Shown here: positions 3,470-42,637 of the stretch, one piece after another | How positions within the stretch are numbered: the first letter of the stretch is position 1 | Layout: each line of letters starts with the position of its first letter | Source: an uncultured Pseudomonadota bacterium | GTDB taxonomy: Bacteria > Pseudomonadota > Alphaproteobacteria > JACZXZ01 | Length of the DNA: 64,000 nucleotides | Assembly (NCBI GenBank): GCA_963749075.1 | Contig: CAVVLJ010000021.1 | Location: forward strand, 64,001-128,000 | Reading direction: 5' to 3' | Notes under the pieces: generated by a model | Databases searched by the model: none | What the model was told of the DNA's origin: nothing | What the model saw: only the letters and a program-made list of their open reading frames with translations | Position numbers and translations under genes: made by a program

Positions 3470-4468
3470 CTAGACCCTGAGGAAGCCGACGATGTCCTGG
3501 ACCTGGCGCAGCACGGGCGTGGCGATCTCCCGCGCCCGCGCGGCACCTTGGCGGAGCACGCCCTCCACATAGGCTTCGTCCGCCTGGAGCCGCTTCATCT
3601 CGCTGCCGATCGGCCCGAGCACGGAAGCCGCGAGCTCGGCGAGCTCCTCCTTGAACTTCGAGAACATGGCGCCGTCGTAGCGCCGGCACACCGCCTCGGT
3701 CGGAAGATCGGCAAGCGCTGCATAGATGCCGACGAGATTGGCGGCCTCGGGCCGGTTCAAGAGCCCGACCGGGTCGCCCGGCAGCGGGTCCGCATCGGTC
3801 TTGGCGCGGCGGATCTTGAGCGCTATGGCGTCGGCGCCGTCGGTCATGTTGATGCGGGAGAAGTCCGAGGGATCCGACTTGCTCATCTTCTTGGTGCCGT
3901 CGCGCAGGCTCATGACGCGGCTCGCCTCGCCGAGGATGAGCGGCTCGATGAGCGGGAAGAAATCGACCTTGTAGTCGCTGTTGAACTTCTGCGCGATGTC
4001 GCGGCAGAGCTCGAGATGCTGCTTCTGGTCCTCGCCTACCGGCACATGGGTCGCCTTGTAGAGGAGGATGTCGGCCGCCATCAGGTTGGGATAGACGTAG
4101 AGCCCGGCGGAGGCGTTCTCGCGGTGCTTGCCCGCCTTCTCCTTGAACTGGGTCATGCGGTTGAGCCAGCCGATGCGCGCCACGCAATTGAAAATCCAGG
4201 CGAGCTCGGCGTGGGCCGCGACCTGGCTCTGGTTGAAGAGGATGGCGCGCTCGGGATCGATGCCGGCCGCGAGCAGGCCGGCGGTCACCTCGCGGGTGCT
4301 CGCGCGCAGCTCGGCCGGCTCCTGCCATTGCGTGATGGCATGGAGGTCGACGACGCAGAAGAGGCAGTGGTACTCGCCCTGCAAAAGCACCCAGTTCCGG
4401 ATGGCACCGAGGTAGTTGCCGAGGTGCAGATTGCCGGTGGGCTGGACGCCCGAGAAGATGCGGTTCAT
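3470..4468 (-). CDS. trpS: Tryptophan--tRNA ligase
   Basis: [32 protein letters not shown]. Confidence 0.97.
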
Positions 4469-4547
4469 GGCGGGGGCCTCACGTGCGGTGCGCACGACGC
4501 GCGCGGCGAGTTATGGCGGCTCGTGCGGGGAGCGGTCAAGGGCCGGC

Positions 4548-31333: not shown

Positions 31334-32092
31334 GTGACGTCCGGCGCCGGCATCTCGACCGCGGCCAGCGGCGGCACGCCAGCGCGCGCGGTCTTCCGGG
31401 TGCCGCTCGCAGCGCGCCTCCTCTCGCTCTTCGGCGTGCTGGTGGTCGGCGCCGCGAGTGCTGCCATGACGGCTTTCGCCGTCGTGCTGCTGTTCGGCAG
31501 GCAATGGCAGGTCGGCCTCTTCGTCCTGGCACCCTGCGCCTGTTTTATCGCCGGCCTCACGGGCTATGTAGCGCGGGATTTGCGCGGCAAATGGGGCCTC
31601 CGCGTGGCGCTCGACGCCAACTCACTCGCCCTCGAGCTGCCTGCCGGGCGCTCGCTCATCCACCGCCCGCAAGCGACGCACGCGATCATCCCCTATGGGG
31701 ATATCGAGGCGATCGAGACGCGGCTCGAGGCCTATTCCAGCCTCGGCATGGCGAGCATGCAGCGCGCCTACGCGCTGCGGCGCAAGGGCGGCGAGCTGAT
31801 CTTCCTCTTCGAGGACCGCGCACTCGGAACGCCGCTCGCGACCCCGTATTTTCAGCACCTCGCGGCCGAGATCGCCGCGCGCGCCCAAGTCCCCTTTCGC
31901 GATCTCGGCATGGTCGAGGGCAAGGGCAGCGTCCTCGCCGTCTGGGGCACGCAGGCGCCCGACTGGGCGGCGCCTTCCCTCCCGCTCGCCCGCCAGCTGC
32001 GCATTTGGCGGCACGTGTGGGCGACCGGCGCACTCGCGGTTGCCGTCGTCATCATTGCGCTGGTGGTGCGACTGCTGAGCGCTCCGCTGTGA
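31334..32092 (+). CDS. Hypothetical membrane protein
   Basis: 252-aa ORF with three hydrophobic segments and genome-like codon usage. Confidence 0.65.
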   Translation: MTSGAGISTAASGGTPARAVFRVPLAARLLSLFGVLVVGAASAAMTAFAVVLLFGRQWQVGLFVLAPCACFIAGLTGYVARDLRGKWGLRVALDANSLALELPAGRSLIHRPQATHAIIPYGDIEAIETRLEAYSSLGMASMQRAYALRRKGGELIFLFEDRALGTPLATPYFQHLAAEIAARAQVPFRDLGMVEGKGSVLAVWGTQAPDWAAPSLPLARQLRIWRHVWATGALAVAVVIIALVVRLLSAPL

Positions 32093-32130: not shown

Positions 32131-33948
32131 TCACCCCGCCTTGCGCGCTTCCTTCTTGCGCTCGTGGCGGTCGAGGTATTGCTTCCTGAGCCGGATGACC
32201 TTGGGCGTCACCTCGACGAGCTCGTCCTCGCCGATATAGGAGATCGCCTGCTCGAGGGTGAGGAGGCGCGGCGGGGTCAAGCGCACCGCCTCGTCCTTGT
32301 TCGCGGCGCGGATGTTGGTGAGCTGCTTGCCCTTCAAGGGATTGACCTCGAGGTCGTTGCCGCGGCTGTGCTCGCCGATGATCATGCCCTGGTAGACGCG
32401 GTCGTTCGGATTGATGAAGAGCACGCCGCGCTCCTCGAGGTTCCAGAGGGCGTAGGCGACGGCAAGGCCGTCGCCGAGCGAGACGAGCACGCCGTTGCGG
32501 CGGCCCTGCATCGGGCCCTTGAAGGGCGCGTAGCCGTGGAAGAGGCGCGAGAGCACGCCGGTGCCGCGCGTCTCGGTCAGGAACTGGCCCTGGTAGCCGA
32601 TGAGGCCGCGCGCGGGCACCAGGAGCGTGAGCCGCGTCTTGCCGCCGCCGGAGGGCCGCATCTCGACGAGCTCGCCCCTGCGCTCGGCGAGCCCGTCGAT
32701 GACGACGCCGGTATGGGCGTCGTCCACGTCGATCAGCACCTCCTCGATGGGCTCGAGGCGGGCGCCGGTCAAGGGATCGTCCTTGAAGAGCACGCGCGGC
32801 CGGCTGATCGAGAGCTCGAAGCCCTCGCGCCGCATGGTCTCGATGAGCACGCCCATCTGCAGCTCGCCGCGGCCGGCGACCTCGAAGGCGTCGCGCTCCT
32901 CGGACTCGCTCACCTTGATGGCGACGTTGCCCTCGGCTTCGCGCATAAGCCGCGTGCCGATCTCGCGCGAGGTGAGGCGCGTGCCGTCGCGGCCGGCAAG
33001 CGGCGAATCATTGACCGAGAAGGTCATGGCGATGGTGGGCGGGTCGATCGGCTGGGCCTTGAGCGCCTCCGTCACCTCGGGGGCTGCGAGCGTGTCGGCG
33101 ACGGTCGCCCGCGCGAGCCCGGCGATCGCGATGATGTCGCCGGCCTCGGCGTGCTCGATCGGCACGCGCTCGAGCCCGCGGAAGGCGAGGAGCTTGGTGA
33201 GCCGCCCCTCCTCGAGGACGCCGCCGTCGCGCGCCAGCGCTCTCACCGGCATGTTGAGCCGTGCGGTGCCTGAATAGATGCGGCCGGTGAGCACGCGGCC
33301 GAGATAGGAATCGTATTCCAGCGTGCTCGCCAGCATGGCGAAGGGTCCTAGGGCGTCGGCCTTGGGCTGAGGGATATGGGAGATGATGAGCTCGAAGAGC
33401 GGCGCCATGCTCTCGCGCGGTGCCTCCAGGCTGGCGGCGGCCCAACCCTCGCGCCCCGAGGCGTAGAGCAGCGGGAAGTCGAGCTGCGCCTCGCTCGCGT
33501 CGAGCGCGGCGAAGAGATCGAAGATCTCCTCGTGCACCTCGTGCGGCCGCGCGTCGGGCCGGTCGCACTTGTTGATCAGCACGATCGGCCTCAAGCCCAG
33601 GCGCAGCGCCTTGGAGAGCACGAACTTGGTCTGCGGCAGCGGGCCCTCGGCGGCGTCGACCAGCACCACCGCACCATCCACCATGTCGAGGATGCGCTCG
33701 ACCTCGCCGCCGAAATCCGCGTGACCCGGCGTATCCACGATGTTGAGGCGCACGCCCTGCCAGGCGACGGAGGTGCATTTGGCGAGGATGGTGATGCCGC
33801 GCTCGCGCTCGAGGTCGTTCGAGTCGAGCGCACGCTCGGCCATCGCCTGGTGGGCGCGCACCGCACCGCTCTGCCTCAAGAGCACGTCGATGAGCGTGGT
33901 CTTGCCGTGGTCGACGTGCGCGATGATGGCGAGGTTGCGGATGTCCAT
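32131..33948 (-). CDS. typA: Translational GTPase TypA/BipA
   Basis: [34 protein letters not shown]. Confidence 0.97.
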
Positions 33949-34040
33949 GGGGCTCGCAGAGGTTCTCCGGTTGCGCCGTAACATAGTGATTGCGGCCTGC
34001 CGGAACAACCATCGCGGCCGTCGCCGTTAAAAGAATTGTT

Positions 34041-34135
34041 CAGCGCAGAGGACGCAGGGGATGCGCAGCAGACGCGGGAGATCCCGGGGACGTCCTGACT
34101 TTGCGCCCTCCGCGCATCCCCTGCGTCCTCCGCGC
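34041..34135. repeat. Intergenic inverted repeat (CGCAGAG-type)
   Basis: gcgcagaggacgcaggggatgcgc ... gcgcatcccctgcgtcctccgcgc. Confidence 0.7.
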
Positions 34136-39004: not shown

Positions 39005-39355
39005 ATGGCCAAGATCGCACTCCCCGAGAACGCCGTGCTCATGGTCATCGACCTGCAGAAGGCGATCGACGATCCGCGCTGGGGCCGGCGCAACAATCCG
39101 GGCTGCGAGGCGAGGGTGGCGGCACTCCTTGCGGCTTGGCGCGCGCGCGGCATGCCCATCGTCCATATTCGCCACGATTCGCGCAAGGCCAACTCGACCT
39201 ACCGCCCGGACCGGCCGGGCCACGGTTTCAAGCCGGAGACCGCATCCCTCGCCGGCGAGACCGTGATCGCGAAAGAGACCAACAGCGCCTTCATCGGCAC
39301 CGAGCTCGAGCCCTGGCTGCGCAGCTGCGGCTACGGCACCCTCGTCGTCGCCGGC
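39005..39355 (+). pseudogene. Isochorismatase/cysteine hydrolase, 5' half (interrupted)
   Basis: VIDLQKAID, HIRHDS, K.TNSAFIGT.LE..LR..G..TLVVAG, then switches abruptly to transposase sequence. Confidence 0.9.
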
Positions 39356-40115
39356 TACAATCGCGACAAGTTGCGCTATCCGAGCGATCTGACGGATGCG
39401 GAATGGCAGCATATCGAGCCGCTGATACCACCGGCCAAGAGTGGCGGCGGCAAGCGGAGCGTCAGACATGCGCGAGGTGGTCAACGGTGTGATGTATGTC
39501 CTGAGCACAGGGTGCCAGTGGCGCTACATCCCAAAAGACCTGCCGCCGCGGAGCACGGTGAACGGCTACTTTTGCCTATGGGGCTACAACGGCGCGTTGG
39601 AGAAGATTCACCACGCGCTCTACGTCAAATGCCGCGAGCAGGATGAAGCCGAGGCGAGCCCCACCGCCTGCATCATCGATAGCCAGAGCGTGAAAAGCGC
39701 AGAAAAAGGGGGGCCTGCATCGATCCCCATGGGTTCGATGCAGGCAAGTTGATCAAAGGCAAGAAGCGCCACATCCTCGTCGATACGCTGGGTTTGTTGC
39801 TGCACGCGCTGGTTACGTCCGCTGATGTTCAGGATCGCGACGGCGGGCTGATGGTCTTGGCCACGTTGTTCGGACAGTTCCCGTTCCTCAAGAAGCTGTT
39901 TGCCGACAGCGCCTATGCGGGGCCGGTGTTCCATGACGGCCTGGCGAACATCATGCCGGACCTCGTCACCGAAATTGTGCGCCGTTCGCGATCGGGCCAA
40001 GGCCTTCGTCGTTCTGCCCAAACGATGGATCGTCGAACGCACTATCGGTTGGCTGGGTCGTTGTCGCCGGCTGGCCAAGGACTGGGAAAATCTCAACCAT
40101 AACGCGCTCGTTTAA
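39356..40115 (+). pseudogene. IS5-family transposase, truncated at both ends and frameshifted
   Basis: [31 protein letters not shown]5G6 slippery site 39703-39713, [25 protein letters not shown]. Confidence 0.9.
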
Positions 40116-40189
40116 TTTATTAAAATATAATATTTAATTATTTAATATAATTAAATAAATTTAATTAAATAATAATTAAAAAAAAAAAT
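40111..40189. other. 79-bp A/T-only tract containing A11 at its 3' end
   Basis: No G or C from 40111 to 40189. Confidence 0.95.
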
Positions 40190-40224
40190 GAGTTCCCGCG
40201 CGGGCTCGTGCGGGTCCTAGAAGA

Positions 40225-40443
40225 TTATGCTTTTTGGTTCTTGAGAAGACGCGCTCTGATTGCGTCGCGTCCGCGCTCAAGGTCGTCTTCCATGAGAAGA
40301 TTACCCTGCTGCATAGACACGTTGCCGCGCGTAAATCGGCGTATCACGCTGTCGGCAATCTCGTCGTCTTCGGCGGCGGCATCGATGGGCGTGATGCCGC
40401 GCTTCAGCAAGAGACGAATTGCAAGGGTCCGCTCATTCTTCAT
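40225..40443 (-). CDS. Small hypothetical protein (72 aa)
   Basis: ATG with GAGGGAG RBS; downstream GC hairpin (40195-40214) then a T-run on the minus strand. Confidence 0.6.
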   Translation of the reverse strand: MKNERTLAIRLLLKRGITPIDAAAEDDEIADSVIRRFTRGNVSMQQGNLLMEDDLERGRDAIRARLLKNQKA

Positions 40444-40895
40444 CGTAGCTCCCTCGGGTGATCAGCGTTTCTTGCCATCCGCCCGATGGTCGGTTGTACG
40501 CCCTACCCCGCGCCGCCTCGCGGTCTAGGGAGTTGCGCGCATCCTACTGCGACATTTTGTCACAGCCCCACAGATTGGCTAGACAGGGGTCTGTACGCTT
40601 GCGGGCTTCTCGCGTGATCATAGCGTGTCCTCGCGTACGCGACACCGCTAATACACCTGAGACGCCAACGATTTGTGGCCGGGCGCTAATCGGACCACAA
40701 CATGTTGAGCAAGGGCACCCTACTCCAACATATTCGTTGAATTAAGCGTTTCTCGGCACTTCCTTCCCCCGCATCTCAATTCGTGGCAATGCGGGACCTA
40801 GCCGACTTGCGGGGCAAGAGTTAACCGGCGATGATGTTAAATAGGGGGGCGCGCGCCAACAACTAGGAGAGATTGCTCATACTAAGTGTGCGGCA

Positions 40896-41216
40896 TCAGC
40901 ATAGGCCAACACTGGCGCGGAATGGGCTGCTCCCATTCGCGCCAGAATACCGGAGATAGATTGATTTGGCGGTCGGCAACACCGTCACATTATCCCCCTC
41001 AATCGACCCGCGCCTTTTCCGGCGCTCTTCGTCGAATCTCTTTTTTAGCTCTGGCTCCGCCTTCAATCGTGCGTCGATAAATGCGCGCAGAGCGTCCGCG
41101 ATGATTCGGTGCTCGGGCGCGCCGCGATGGGCTTCGCAAAAATCGACAAGGTCGCTGGCGAGGGGTTCCCGCAGCTTCCACCGGCCTTTCGGCGGATTGG
41201 GGTCGGCTGTCACCAT
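40896..41216 (-). CDS. Small hypothetical protein, possibly RHH/CopG-like
   Basis: WKLREPLASDLVDFCEAH...RIIADALRAFI strand-helix-helix pattern; upstream repeats gtaccaac/gttaccag/gttaccag. Confidence 0.55.
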   Translation of the reverse strand: MVTADPNPPKGRWKLREPLASDLVDFCEAHRGAPEHRIIADALRAFIDARLKAEPELKKRFDEERRKRRGSIEGDNVTVLPTAKSIYLRYSGANGSSPFRASVGLC

Positions 41217-41297
41217 GCTTCGGACAGTACCAACTGTTACCAGCCGTTACCAGATTTTGCTTGACGGCGCTGGCGGCAGAGGGGCAAGATAGGCGCA

Positions 41298-41324
41298 CAA
41301 AAAGAGCGCCCCCGAAGGGGCGCT
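41298..41324 (-). terminator. Intrinsic terminator
   Basis: Minus strand AGCGCCCC-TTCG-GGGGCGCT-CTTTTTG. Confidence 0.85.
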
Positions 41325-41597
41325 GAGTTGCCGGATCAGTTTCTACGGGTGGCCGCGTGTGAGGCGCGGCCATTTCCGTATGTGAGCTTCGATGGTTTCC
41401 CATCGTCCGCGTCTGCACCTGAGGTATCTCCTTACGGAGACCATCCGCCCCCAGGGCAGTCCGCACGCGAATGCATCCATGTGCTGCTCCGCCACGGTGG
41501 GCAGGTTTTGGCCTGCCGACCTCGGAGCGCCCGATGCGCCCCGCCCAATCAGGGCGCGGGCGCCGTCCTTAGACGGAGGGCCGGAGCATTCGCGGCA
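41298..41597 (-). ncRNA. Candidate ~300-nt structured RNA of unknown family
   Basis: At least seven hairpins, including GAAA, GUAA and UUCG tetraloops on the minus strand; 9-bp long-range stem 41466-41474/41586-41594; TTGACC at 41628-41623. Confidence 0.6.
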
Positions 41598-41634
41598 GAA
41601 AGGGAACCAACAAGATCGCGTCGGTCAATCCAAA

Positions 41635-41679
41635 GTTATCCACAAGAACTAGCGGTTTGTTAATATTTCTGTGGATAAC
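41635..41679. promoter_or_regulatory. Inverted pair of consensus DnaA boxes
   Basis: TTATCCACA 41636-41644 and TGTGGATAA 41670-41678. Confidence 0.75.
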
Positions 41680-41698
41680 CTTCGTCGATCAAGCGCCG

Positions 41699-41938
41699 GT
41701 CATCACCAACAACTCGGTCGAGGCGACGGTGCGCATGGCGGGCAACCTCGGTTTCGCCACCTATGTCGTCGCCGACGGCTGCTTCACGGTGGACAAGCGC
41801 GATCTTTCAGGCGAGCTCCATCCCGCCGAGCGCGTCCACGCGCTCTCGCTTGCCAACATGCAGGGCGAATATGCCCAAGTGGTAGAGAGCCGCGAGCTCC
41901 TCGCGGCCCTCGCCCGCACGCCCGGCAGCTCGTCCTGA
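41699..41938 (+). pseudogene. Isochorismatase/cysteine hydrolase, 3' half
   Basis: VITNNSVEATVRMAGNLGF..YVVADGCFT...HALSLANMQGEYA. Confidence 0.9.
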
Positions 41939-41942
41939 GCGA

Positions 41943-41961
41943 TAGTGCAACAGTTGCACTA
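41943..41961. promoter_or_regulatory. Palindromic operator upstream of DUF4160 gene
   Basis: TAGTGCAAC-A-GTTGCACTA. Confidence 0.65.
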
Positions 41962-41972
41962 GGGCGAGACTT

Positions 41973-42200
41973 ATGGTAGCGCTCCACCGTGACGCCGATC
42001 GGAAAATTGCCGTCTACGGGCGCGAGCATGGCGTGCCCCATTTCCACGTGGAGGGCCGCGGATTTCGCTGCTCTATCATCATCGGAACGGAAGAGCCGAT
42101 CATCGGGACAGCTCCCCGCGCGATCTTGAAAGCGGCTTGCGCTTGGGCGCGGGAGAATCGCCAAATGCTGATGGCGAAATGGCAGGAGCTGAATTCATGA
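41973..42200 (+). CDS. DUF4160 family protein (putative toxin)
   Basis: EH..PHFHV, WAREN...L...WQ. Confidence 0.82.
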   Translation: MVALHRDADRKIAVYGREHGVPHFHVEGRGFRCSIIIGTEEPIIGTAPRAILKAACAWARENRQMLMAKWQELNS

Positions 42201-42637
42201 GTGCCGAAGACAAGCTCCGCACGATCGCGGCGGTGAAAGCCAAAGCTCCCGCGGCGATCGCGGTCAAATGGTCCGACGGCACGCGTGCCGATCTCGACCT
42301 CGGCGCGCTGCTCAGCAAAAAAGCCTACAGCGCTTTGCGCGATCGAGCCGAATTCGCGCGCGTTCGCGTGGGCGAATGGGGTCACTCCGTCGAATGGCCG
42401 TCCGGAGCAGAGCTCGGCGCGGAGACGCTCTGGCTGGAGACCTTGTCGGCCACCGGCCGCGCGGATGCGCGAAGCTTCCTCGAATGGCGCCTGAGGCACG
42501 GCCTGTCTTTGAGCAAGACCGCAGAGGCATTGGGCCTTTCCCGGCGGATGGTTGCCTACTACTCGAACGGGGAGAAGCCCGTGCCGCGCCCGATTTTGCT
42601 CGCCTGCAAGGGCTGGGAAGTCAGTCACGCGGCATAG
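42197..42637 (+). CDS. DUF2442 plus HTH protein (putative antitoxin)
   Basis: V.WSDG, F..V.V..WG.SVEW..G.EL; C-terminal HTH (GLSL..TAEALGLSRR.V.YY..G). Confidence 0.82.
   Translation: MSAEDKLRTIAAVKAKAPAAIAVKWSDGTRADLDLGALLSKKAYSALRDRAEFARVRVGEWGHSVEWPSGAELGAETLWLETLSATGRADARSFLEWRLRHGLSLSKTAEALGLSRRMVAYYSNGEKPVPRPILLACKGWEVSHAA

Follow-up and report, generated by a model that had tools for sequence, protein, structure and literature searches.

What does the strongly folded stretch at 41298-41628, on the minus strand of the window (the whole 64,000-nt stretch of DNA that was analysed), encode? The initial annotation regarded it as an unannotated structured RNA of about 300 nt, either an independent non-coding RNA or an attenuator- or riboswitch-like leader of the RHH-like gene downstream. 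According to the present analysis, it is, with a probability of roughly 0.8, an unannotated small protein gene within a transposon remnant, which would be read from a DnaA-box promoter, begin with a conserved leader hiding the ribosome-binding site and end at a terminator of its own. The claim of a discrete minus-strand unit (~295 nt) with conserved structure and with its own -35 element and terminator is retained, while its interpretation as a novel non-coding RNA is given up. The stretch would then be a member of a recurrent, unnamed family of small genes; leader-controlled small genes on mobile DNA are a known kind of arrangement, and the novelty of the stretch is modest.

The structural elements from which the claim was built were all recovered when the minus strand was read. 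A 9-bp closing helix, CGCGAAUGC (41594-41586) with GCAUUCGCG (41474-41466), encloses the hairpins CCGUC/GACGG, GCGCCC..GGGCGC, and GGCAGG/CCUGCC; a second domain, CUGC-CCUGGGG/CCUCAGG-GCAG, holds UCUCC-GUAA-GGAGA; the hairpin CGAUGG-GAAA-CCAUCG and an extended arm, UGGCCGCG/CGCGGCCA, are also present. As stated originally, only the minus strand gives correct GNRA and UUCG loops. The minimum free energy of this strand is -173.1 kcal/mol, compared with -138.2 ± 5.9 kcal/mol for 100 dinucleotide shuffles (z -5.96), none of which matched it, and the stretch is thus clearly better folded than shuffled sequence. Since the plus strand folds strongly too (z -4.87), folding energy alone cannot choose between the strands. 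Of 49 further 331-nt segments taken from these 64 kb (mean z -0.64, sd 1.42), only one was similarly extreme (33801-34131, z -5.5). The fold at 33801-34131 (minus strand) consists chiefly of an almost perfectly paired hairpin of ~85 nt at its 5' end, with a GTPase-like ORF roughly 190 nt downstream.

A search of the whole window with 4227 Rfam models gave no match at the gathering threshold. Nine sub-threshold matches in 40100-41800 were all far under the cut-offs, the best of them (E 0.04) being to a microRNA model, and no Rfam family matches the stretch, in keeping with the first impression that its family was not a recognisable one. ARAGORN detected no tRNA or tmRNA gene in the window or in L002, and RF00005 had no match in the window. 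A tRNA with a group I intron, or another tRNA-like RNA, was rejected because both a T-arm and an Rfam match are absent; a bridge or guide RNA was rejected because no IS110, TnpB, or IscB gene is present. The size of the stretch, its GC-rich helices, and its GNRA tetraloops resemble those of HEARO/omega RNA, OLE, raiA, ROOL, tmRNA, RNase P, and group I/II introns, some of which also share its association with mobile elements. It differs from these large RNAs in matching 0 of the 4227 models and in that half of it is coding.

Searches for DNA homologs of the stretch turned up just one, 81% identical over 331 nt, in the congeneric genome G003. Counting the window's own genome, the stretch is present in 2 of 11 genomes of the order and in 2 of 401 genomes of the class (matches longer than 51 nt), and of 151 genomes searched with a covariance model of its 190-nt core (R1), G000 and G003 alone matched, with nothing significant in the other loci collected. 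The remaining 27 of the 29 matching genomes in the class-wide BLAST, which had merely 20-51-nt matches, were discarded, as was a 37-nt match in G021, which lies in coding-like DNA and was ascribed to chance. BLAST of plasmids and phages with the stretch yielded no homolog. Loci on metagenome contigs that were found by 18-mers were also counted as chance, because none of the 49 was similar beyond 31-53 nt. Two of three pattern scans of viral contigs gave no match, and the eight viral contigs matched by the DnaA-box palindrome pattern contain ordinary DnaA-box clusters in low-GC DNA, unrelated to the stretch.

On the minus strand, an ORF for a basic protein of 45 residues occupies 41343-41480, from an AUG at 41480-41478 to a UAG stop codon at 41345-41343. 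A Shine-Dalgarno sequence, GGAG (41487-41490), which is predicted to be paired, lies 6 nt before the AUG, and a GUG at 41495, five codons upstream, is a possible alternative start. The assignment as a CDS is based on homologs, the ribosome-binding site, and the codon-position pattern. The sense ORF is open at equal length in the window and in G003, where both copies stop at codon 46 by different stop codons, and the upstream start has undergone a G-to-A change between the copies that still leaves a start codon. For the ORF, pN/pS between the two copies is 0.40. In the 251-nt ungapped block, the ratio is 0.58 in the ORF frame versus 0.99-1.26 in the five other frames, and a ratio this low was reached in ~1% of trials when the 32 substitutions were randomly moved (before six-frame correction). 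An antisense ORF (111/138 aa) was rejected as the gene, its pN/pS being about 1, and a word-indexed protein search with its 111-aa form gave no match.

The protein reading draws further on nine loci at which the DNA around the core is unrelated and a peptide core is common to all. A start codon stands 4-8 nt behind a GGAG-type ribosome-binding site in 9/9 of them. Over the 25-codon core, identity is 0.60 at the first codon position, 0.68 at the second, and 0.33 at the third, and amino-acid identity is 0.53, as averaged over 35 locus pairs (all pairs of the nine loci except the window with G003). Such a pattern across diverged DNA is a signature of selection on the protein. A conserved ORF that explains the region, the finding which the initial annotation itself had set against its proposal, is present at 41480-41343; with ~138 of ~295 nt accounted for by these 45 conserved codons, the stretch is not an independent non-coding RNA. 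The content of Trp, Cys, and His in the product is high for a protein. A word-indexed search of 5.8 billion proteins with the 50-residue form returned no match, not even the window's own gene, which indicates that gene callers did not call the ORF here.

Relatives of the small protein were detected by phmmer among 1.84 billion representatives (27 proteins at E <= 1e-3, best 6.8e-10). Among the matches listed, P0059, P0068, P0076, and P0077 start exactly at query residue 6, which corresponds to the AUG at 41480. As relatives of this kind are detectable only when the frame is open, the database matches carry an ascertainment bias. An alignment of 26 rows was made from 24 of the 27 relatives and the proteins of the window and G003, omitting as long or repetitive P0066, P0067, and P0072 (192, 1840, and 916 aa). 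Its consensus, M.AF....GR.V.VR.YLR.R.G.WETV.SH.RKWPR, contains five invariant and four nearly invariant residues, and the replacements seen are conservative. When the alignment was used as a query against the 401 class genomes, 12 matches were obtained at E <= 0.01, nine of them at E <= 1.5e-5; the three weakest were counted as chance because they lie inside ORFs of 262-653 aa. No model in Pfam or NCBIfam matches the small protein, and the 10 clusters looked up among the relatives were all unnamed metagenomic ORFs. An unnamed family of small proteins has thereby surfaced, with at least 27 cluster representatives and an occurrence in 9 of 401 sampled class genomes, and annotation gains one further small ORF and a family profile.

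AlphaFold2, run on the 26-row alignment, predicted four short beta strands (residues 12-16, 19-23, 26-30, and 33-37) with a mean pLDDT of 73.6 and 84-94 in the core. Foldseek found no fold match in the PDB (best E 4.2), and the ESM Atlas returned unnamed clusters only (scores 0.87-0.88), which serve as leads only. The protein is very basic and lacks a hydrophobic stretch. Judging from its charge and its conserved aromatic residues, it most likely binds nucleic acid, a function read from composition only, since neither a Pfam or NCBIfam model nor a known fold matches. Literature searches turned up no title or abstract opening on this small gene.

The ~115-nt 5' leader (41481-41597, minus strand) forms a multi-hairpin domain according to the fold models and the comparison with G003. 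It is closed by a predicted helix between the leader 5' end and codons 1-9, and an inner helix, GCUCCG/CGGAGC, is predicted to pair the ribosome-binding site. Identity to G003 falls from 107/119 (90%) in the leader to 105/138 (76%) in the CDS and 18/47 (38%) at the 3' end. When the whole transcript is modelled, the GGAG has an unpaired probability of no more than 0.02 in either copy, and codons 2-9 have a mean of 0.19 in the window and 0.13 in G003, versus 0.34 and 0.33 overall; where the leader pairs with codon 2, the U:A of the window is replaced by G:C in G003. The idea of a riboswitch-like leader has thus survived in part, as a structured and conserved leader of the small ORF that would hide its ribosome-binding site, and has been dropped for the RHH gene.

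The other seven loci likewise have a wholly or partly paired ribosome-binding site in their minimum-energy folds, which gives weak support, as most bases pair anyway in GC-rich RNA. A like layout, with a 5' anti-Shine-Dalgarno strand, several hairpins, and then the Shine-Dalgarno strand, is seen in L115 and L118. The leader sequence itself was not detected beyond the two genomes (2/151 by the covariance model, 2/401 by BLAST above 51 nt), and on the other family loci the covariance model gave E values of 0.12-0.4, with no detectable relationship between leaders. Riboswitches are recognised by an aptamer conserved with covariation across many lineages, and no such aptamer was found in the leader. 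In a soil DNA run (X1), the window form, a G003-like form, and a short third leader variant (corresponding to 41486-41557, with 9 differences in 72 nt) were observed, which indicates that more relatives exist than the genome collections show.

Upstream of the leader, a -35-like TTGACC is located at 41623-41628 (minus strand), and the overlapping ATTGAC is conserved in G003. As originally noted, the -10 element is poor, and a promoter scan found no sigma-70-type site in 40100-41800; a sigma-54 promoter was rejected because its GG is not kept in G003. Transcription would start near 41597, implying a transcript of ~295 nt. Just upstream of the -35 element, two perfect inverted copies of the 9-mer TTATCCACA, which we take to be the DnaA-box consensus, are located at 41636-41644 (plus strand) and 41670-41678 (minus strand). 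They are the only two perfect matches in the 64 kb, and G003 carries one perfect and two one-mismatch boxes at the same place. Given consensus boxes this near to it, the promoter would class as DnaA-regulated; DnaA-like boxes stand upstream in 3 of the 9 small-gene loci. At the other end, the UUCG-loop terminator with its T-run was found again as a predicted intrinsic terminator (41298-41324, minus strand) with an 8-bp stem and UUCG loop at 41324-41305, followed by the U-tract. G003 and L114 each have a terminator in the corresponding position, and the three differ in sequence. Contigs of the RNA runs X2, X18, and X19 reach only the conserved isochorismatase part at 41699-41760 and have no bearing on transcription of the stretch.

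The RHH-like gene (40965-41216, minus strand; family members ~84 aa) does lie where it had been placed, starting at 41216, about 85 nt after the terminator. The stretch is, however, not its leader, as the terminator separates the two genes, and does so in G003 and L114 as well, and the RHH gene has an upstream region of its own (41227-41265, minus strand). About 40 nt after the terminator, this region begins with GTCAAG (41265-41260), followed by three repeats 10 nt apart: TGGTAAC (41252-41246), TGGTAAC (41242-41236), and TGGTAC (41232-41227). A like layout, with CTGGTACC repeats, is found in L069, L070, and L071. RHH repressors of the CopG, Arc, and omega type bind short tandem repeats, and the three TGGTA(A/C)C repeats 10 nt apart before the gene resemble their sites; we infer that they act as an operator. 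The RHH-like protein differs from those repressors in that no Pfam model matches it, and its gene is a neighbour of the small gene, not part of it.

The junction between the two genes is a mosaic, in which 41698 to 41260 resembles G003 and 41329 to 40959 resembles the RHH loci L069-L072. The RHH proteins of the window and G003 are of two unrelated types (E 0.037), and an RHH gene follows the small ORF in 3 of 9 loci (window, G003, and L114). The family of the window's RHH protein has 58 relatives in the protein collection, and four convincing loci plus one weak locus in the genome collection; in 3 of the 4 convincing loci, the slot before the RHH gene is taken by a tRNA gene, not by the small ORF. 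Searches of viral contigs with the RHH family and with the 155-aa protein that adjoins the module in G003 gave no match. The window's RHH frame runs to 40896, 22 codons past the usual end of the family (...LPTAK). DNA homology to L069 and its sister loci ends at 40959, and the module appears truncated exactly where the RHH stop codon stands.

The tRNA genes that take this slot in L069 and L070 are unusual. The one in L069 (1086-1188), with a 30-nt variable arm and a UAU anticodon, is missed by ARAGORN and scores 59 bits with Rfam; the one in L070 (3797-3869) has a 9-nt anticodon loop and scores 49 bits. In L070, a 161-bp direct repeat (2747-2907 and 4316-4476; 86% identical) surrounds a 1.57-kb low-GC island with a 162-aa gene, the odd tRNA, and the RHH gene, which adjoins hslUV in a complete chromosome. 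PADLOC, run on the neighbouring proteins, reported only weak AbiEi matches (E 0.005-0.01), to this 162-aa protein.

The stretch is single-copy in its genome. In the window, an isochorismatase-family gene is interrupted by 2,343 bp of inserted DNA (39356-41698), and the stretch lies at the right edge of this insertion. Positions 2-122 of the isochorismatase Pfam model lie in one ORF and 122-173 in another, 2.3 kb away, and the gene is contiguous in all five related loci examined. The insertion is flanked by an imperfect direct repeat (18/21 bp; 39338-39355 and 41678-41698). It is a mosaic, whose left end is an IS5-family transposase fragment lacking ends (39356-40112) and whose right-hand 734 bp are the small-gene/RHH module; a 72-codon ORF of no known family and the two inverted 9-mers also lie within the insertion. 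From the stop codon of the truncated IS5-type transposase, a run of 79 nt (40112-40190) is purely A/T in a genome of ~70% G+C, and could be real or an assembly join. No IS1595-type transposase was found in 39356-41698, and the terminal-repeat motif is missing from the insertion ends, its sole match in the window being 8 kb off, at 31565.

The G003 copy is carried by a 4.74-kb element that is bounded by 23-bp terminal inverted repeats and has duplicated 9 bp of its target, an MFS gene. The transposase of this element contains DDE_Tnp_IS1595 (Pfam E 1.2e-33) and Zn_ribbon_IS1595 domains, and the stretch lies near the left end of the element, 415 bp inward of the terminal repeat. Passenger genes are known from IS1595-family transposons of subgroups such as ISNwi1 and ISPna2, and target duplications in this family are about 8 bp. 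Judged by its transposase, 23-bp repeats, and 9-bp duplication, the G003 element is an intact IS1595-family transposon, whereas the window copy, without transposase and terminal repeats, does not qualify on the same features. Related terminal repeats are found in L072, remnants of IS1595-type transposases immediately precede L115 and L118, and the small-gene module persists as stranded mini-islands in L117 and L119. Besides the module, the G003 transposon (L068, 4154-8895) has a DUF6471 gene and, at low GC content, three ORFs of 121, 201, and 245 aa that neither Pfam nor PADLOC matched. Of 401 class genomes, 22 (counting G249, unpublished, on which no other result depends) encode relatives of the 155-aa protein that adjoins the G003 module, and among these loci, that of G003 alone carries the stretch.

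Taken together, the small-gene reading would work as follows. From the TTGACC -35 element behind two inverted consensus boxes, a transcript of ~295 nt would be made, ending at the intrinsic terminator. Its leader would fold compactly, pairing the GGAG in the inner helix and codons 1-9 with the leader 5' end, and the remainder would encode the very basic 45-residue protein, a predicted four-stranded beta-meander. By comparison with controlled small proteins of other mobile elements, the leader may hold translation low until a trigger opens the fold, and the protein probably acts in the biology of its carrier. The small gene and the separately transcribed RHH gene would form a module in passenger-carrying IS1595-family transposons or their stranded remnants. 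Strongly structured leaders and carriage by such transposons and remnants would characterise the family.

A bolder version, which we consider unlikely, is that the ~115-nt leader is a new translational switch responding to a trigger (a ligand, a protein, or a cell-cycle step) and gating a hitherto unrecognised family of nucleic-acid-binding beta-meander proteins of ~45 residues, which together with a swappable RHH repressor would make up a control module of IS1595-type transposons, in a slot that unusual tRNA genes fill in sister elements. If the leader were a true switch, or if the protein regulated transposition, the locus would offer a compact model for the control of small genes in mobile elements.

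Small, tightly controlled proteins are known from the type I toxin mRNAs hok, tisB, and zorO, whose 5' leaders sequester the ribosome-binding site. Like them, the locus has a short ORF behind a long structured leader and lies on mobile DNA, and long-range pairing is predicted here to hide the Shine-Dalgarno sequence and the first codons. It could accordingly be asked whether it is a type I toxin-antitoxin-like locus, in which a toxic protein would be encoded by a leader-locked mRNA and countered by an antisense RNA or by the RHH protein as antidote or repressor. The survival of the module as stranded mini-islands (L117 and L119) and the RHH gene that follows in three of the nine loci would agree with this. 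A type I toxin is a small hydrophobic membrane peptide with an antisense RNA encoded in cis or in trans, however, and the protein here has no hydrophobic segment, being basic and predicted to be soluble and all-beta instead of a membrane helix. Moreover, the scan of 40100-41800 revealed no promoter-like site on either strand, and the RHH partner is of two unrelated types, is missing from six of the nine loci, and in the window's own RHH family otherwise stands behind tRNA genes, not behind a small ORF. A toxin-antitoxin role is thus decidedly unlikely.

Still less probable is that the entire ~300 nt is a purely non-coding structured RNA whose 45-codon frame stays open by chance or through constraint on the RNA. 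Besides the folding energy (z -5.96), the strand-specific GNRA and UUCG loops, and the tRNA gene that takes the slot before the RHH gene in sister elements, the CDS part supports such a view, as it is strongly folded when taken alone (z -3.5 in the window, -3.9 in G003) and contains two GNRA hairpins and one G:C-to-C:G compensatory pair, which implies that an RNA-level constraint is mixed with the coding constraint. These hairpins, however, are confined to the window and G003, and the GAAA hairpin is missing in L114. Between the window and G003, 89 predicted pairs are kept, 72 invariant, 10 changed on one side, and seven changed on both sides, a number reached by 2 of 500 shuffles, in a structure that was derived from the same two sequences on which the pairs were counted. 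Non-coding RNA also fails to account for nine loci with unrelated nucleotide sequence and a common peptide core, for third codon positions that are near random (0.33), and for a ribosome-binding site and start codon in every one of them. With the small protein gene preferred, a tempting false positive is removed: the "new 300-nt ncRNA" is largely a missed small protein gene, and GC-rich small genes can resemble structured RNAs.

Hardly any credence can be given to a structure acting at the level of DNA, as a replication or transposition site by the DnaA boxes (e.g., a single-strand initiation signal or a protein-binding end region); both strands fold well, two consensus boxes abut the stretch, and its place in the G003 transposon is close to the left end, but it is 415 bp inward of the terminal repeat there, the terminators, ribosome-binding site, and coding signature are all strand-specific, and just three of the nine family loci have DnaA-like boxes.

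Finally, a separate insertion of 715 bp (41914-42627) was identified between the isochorismatase gene and dapB, which is absent from five related loci. It contains DUF4160 and DUF2442-HTH genes, with weak NCBIfam matches to the DhiT/DhiA toxin-antitoxin pair.
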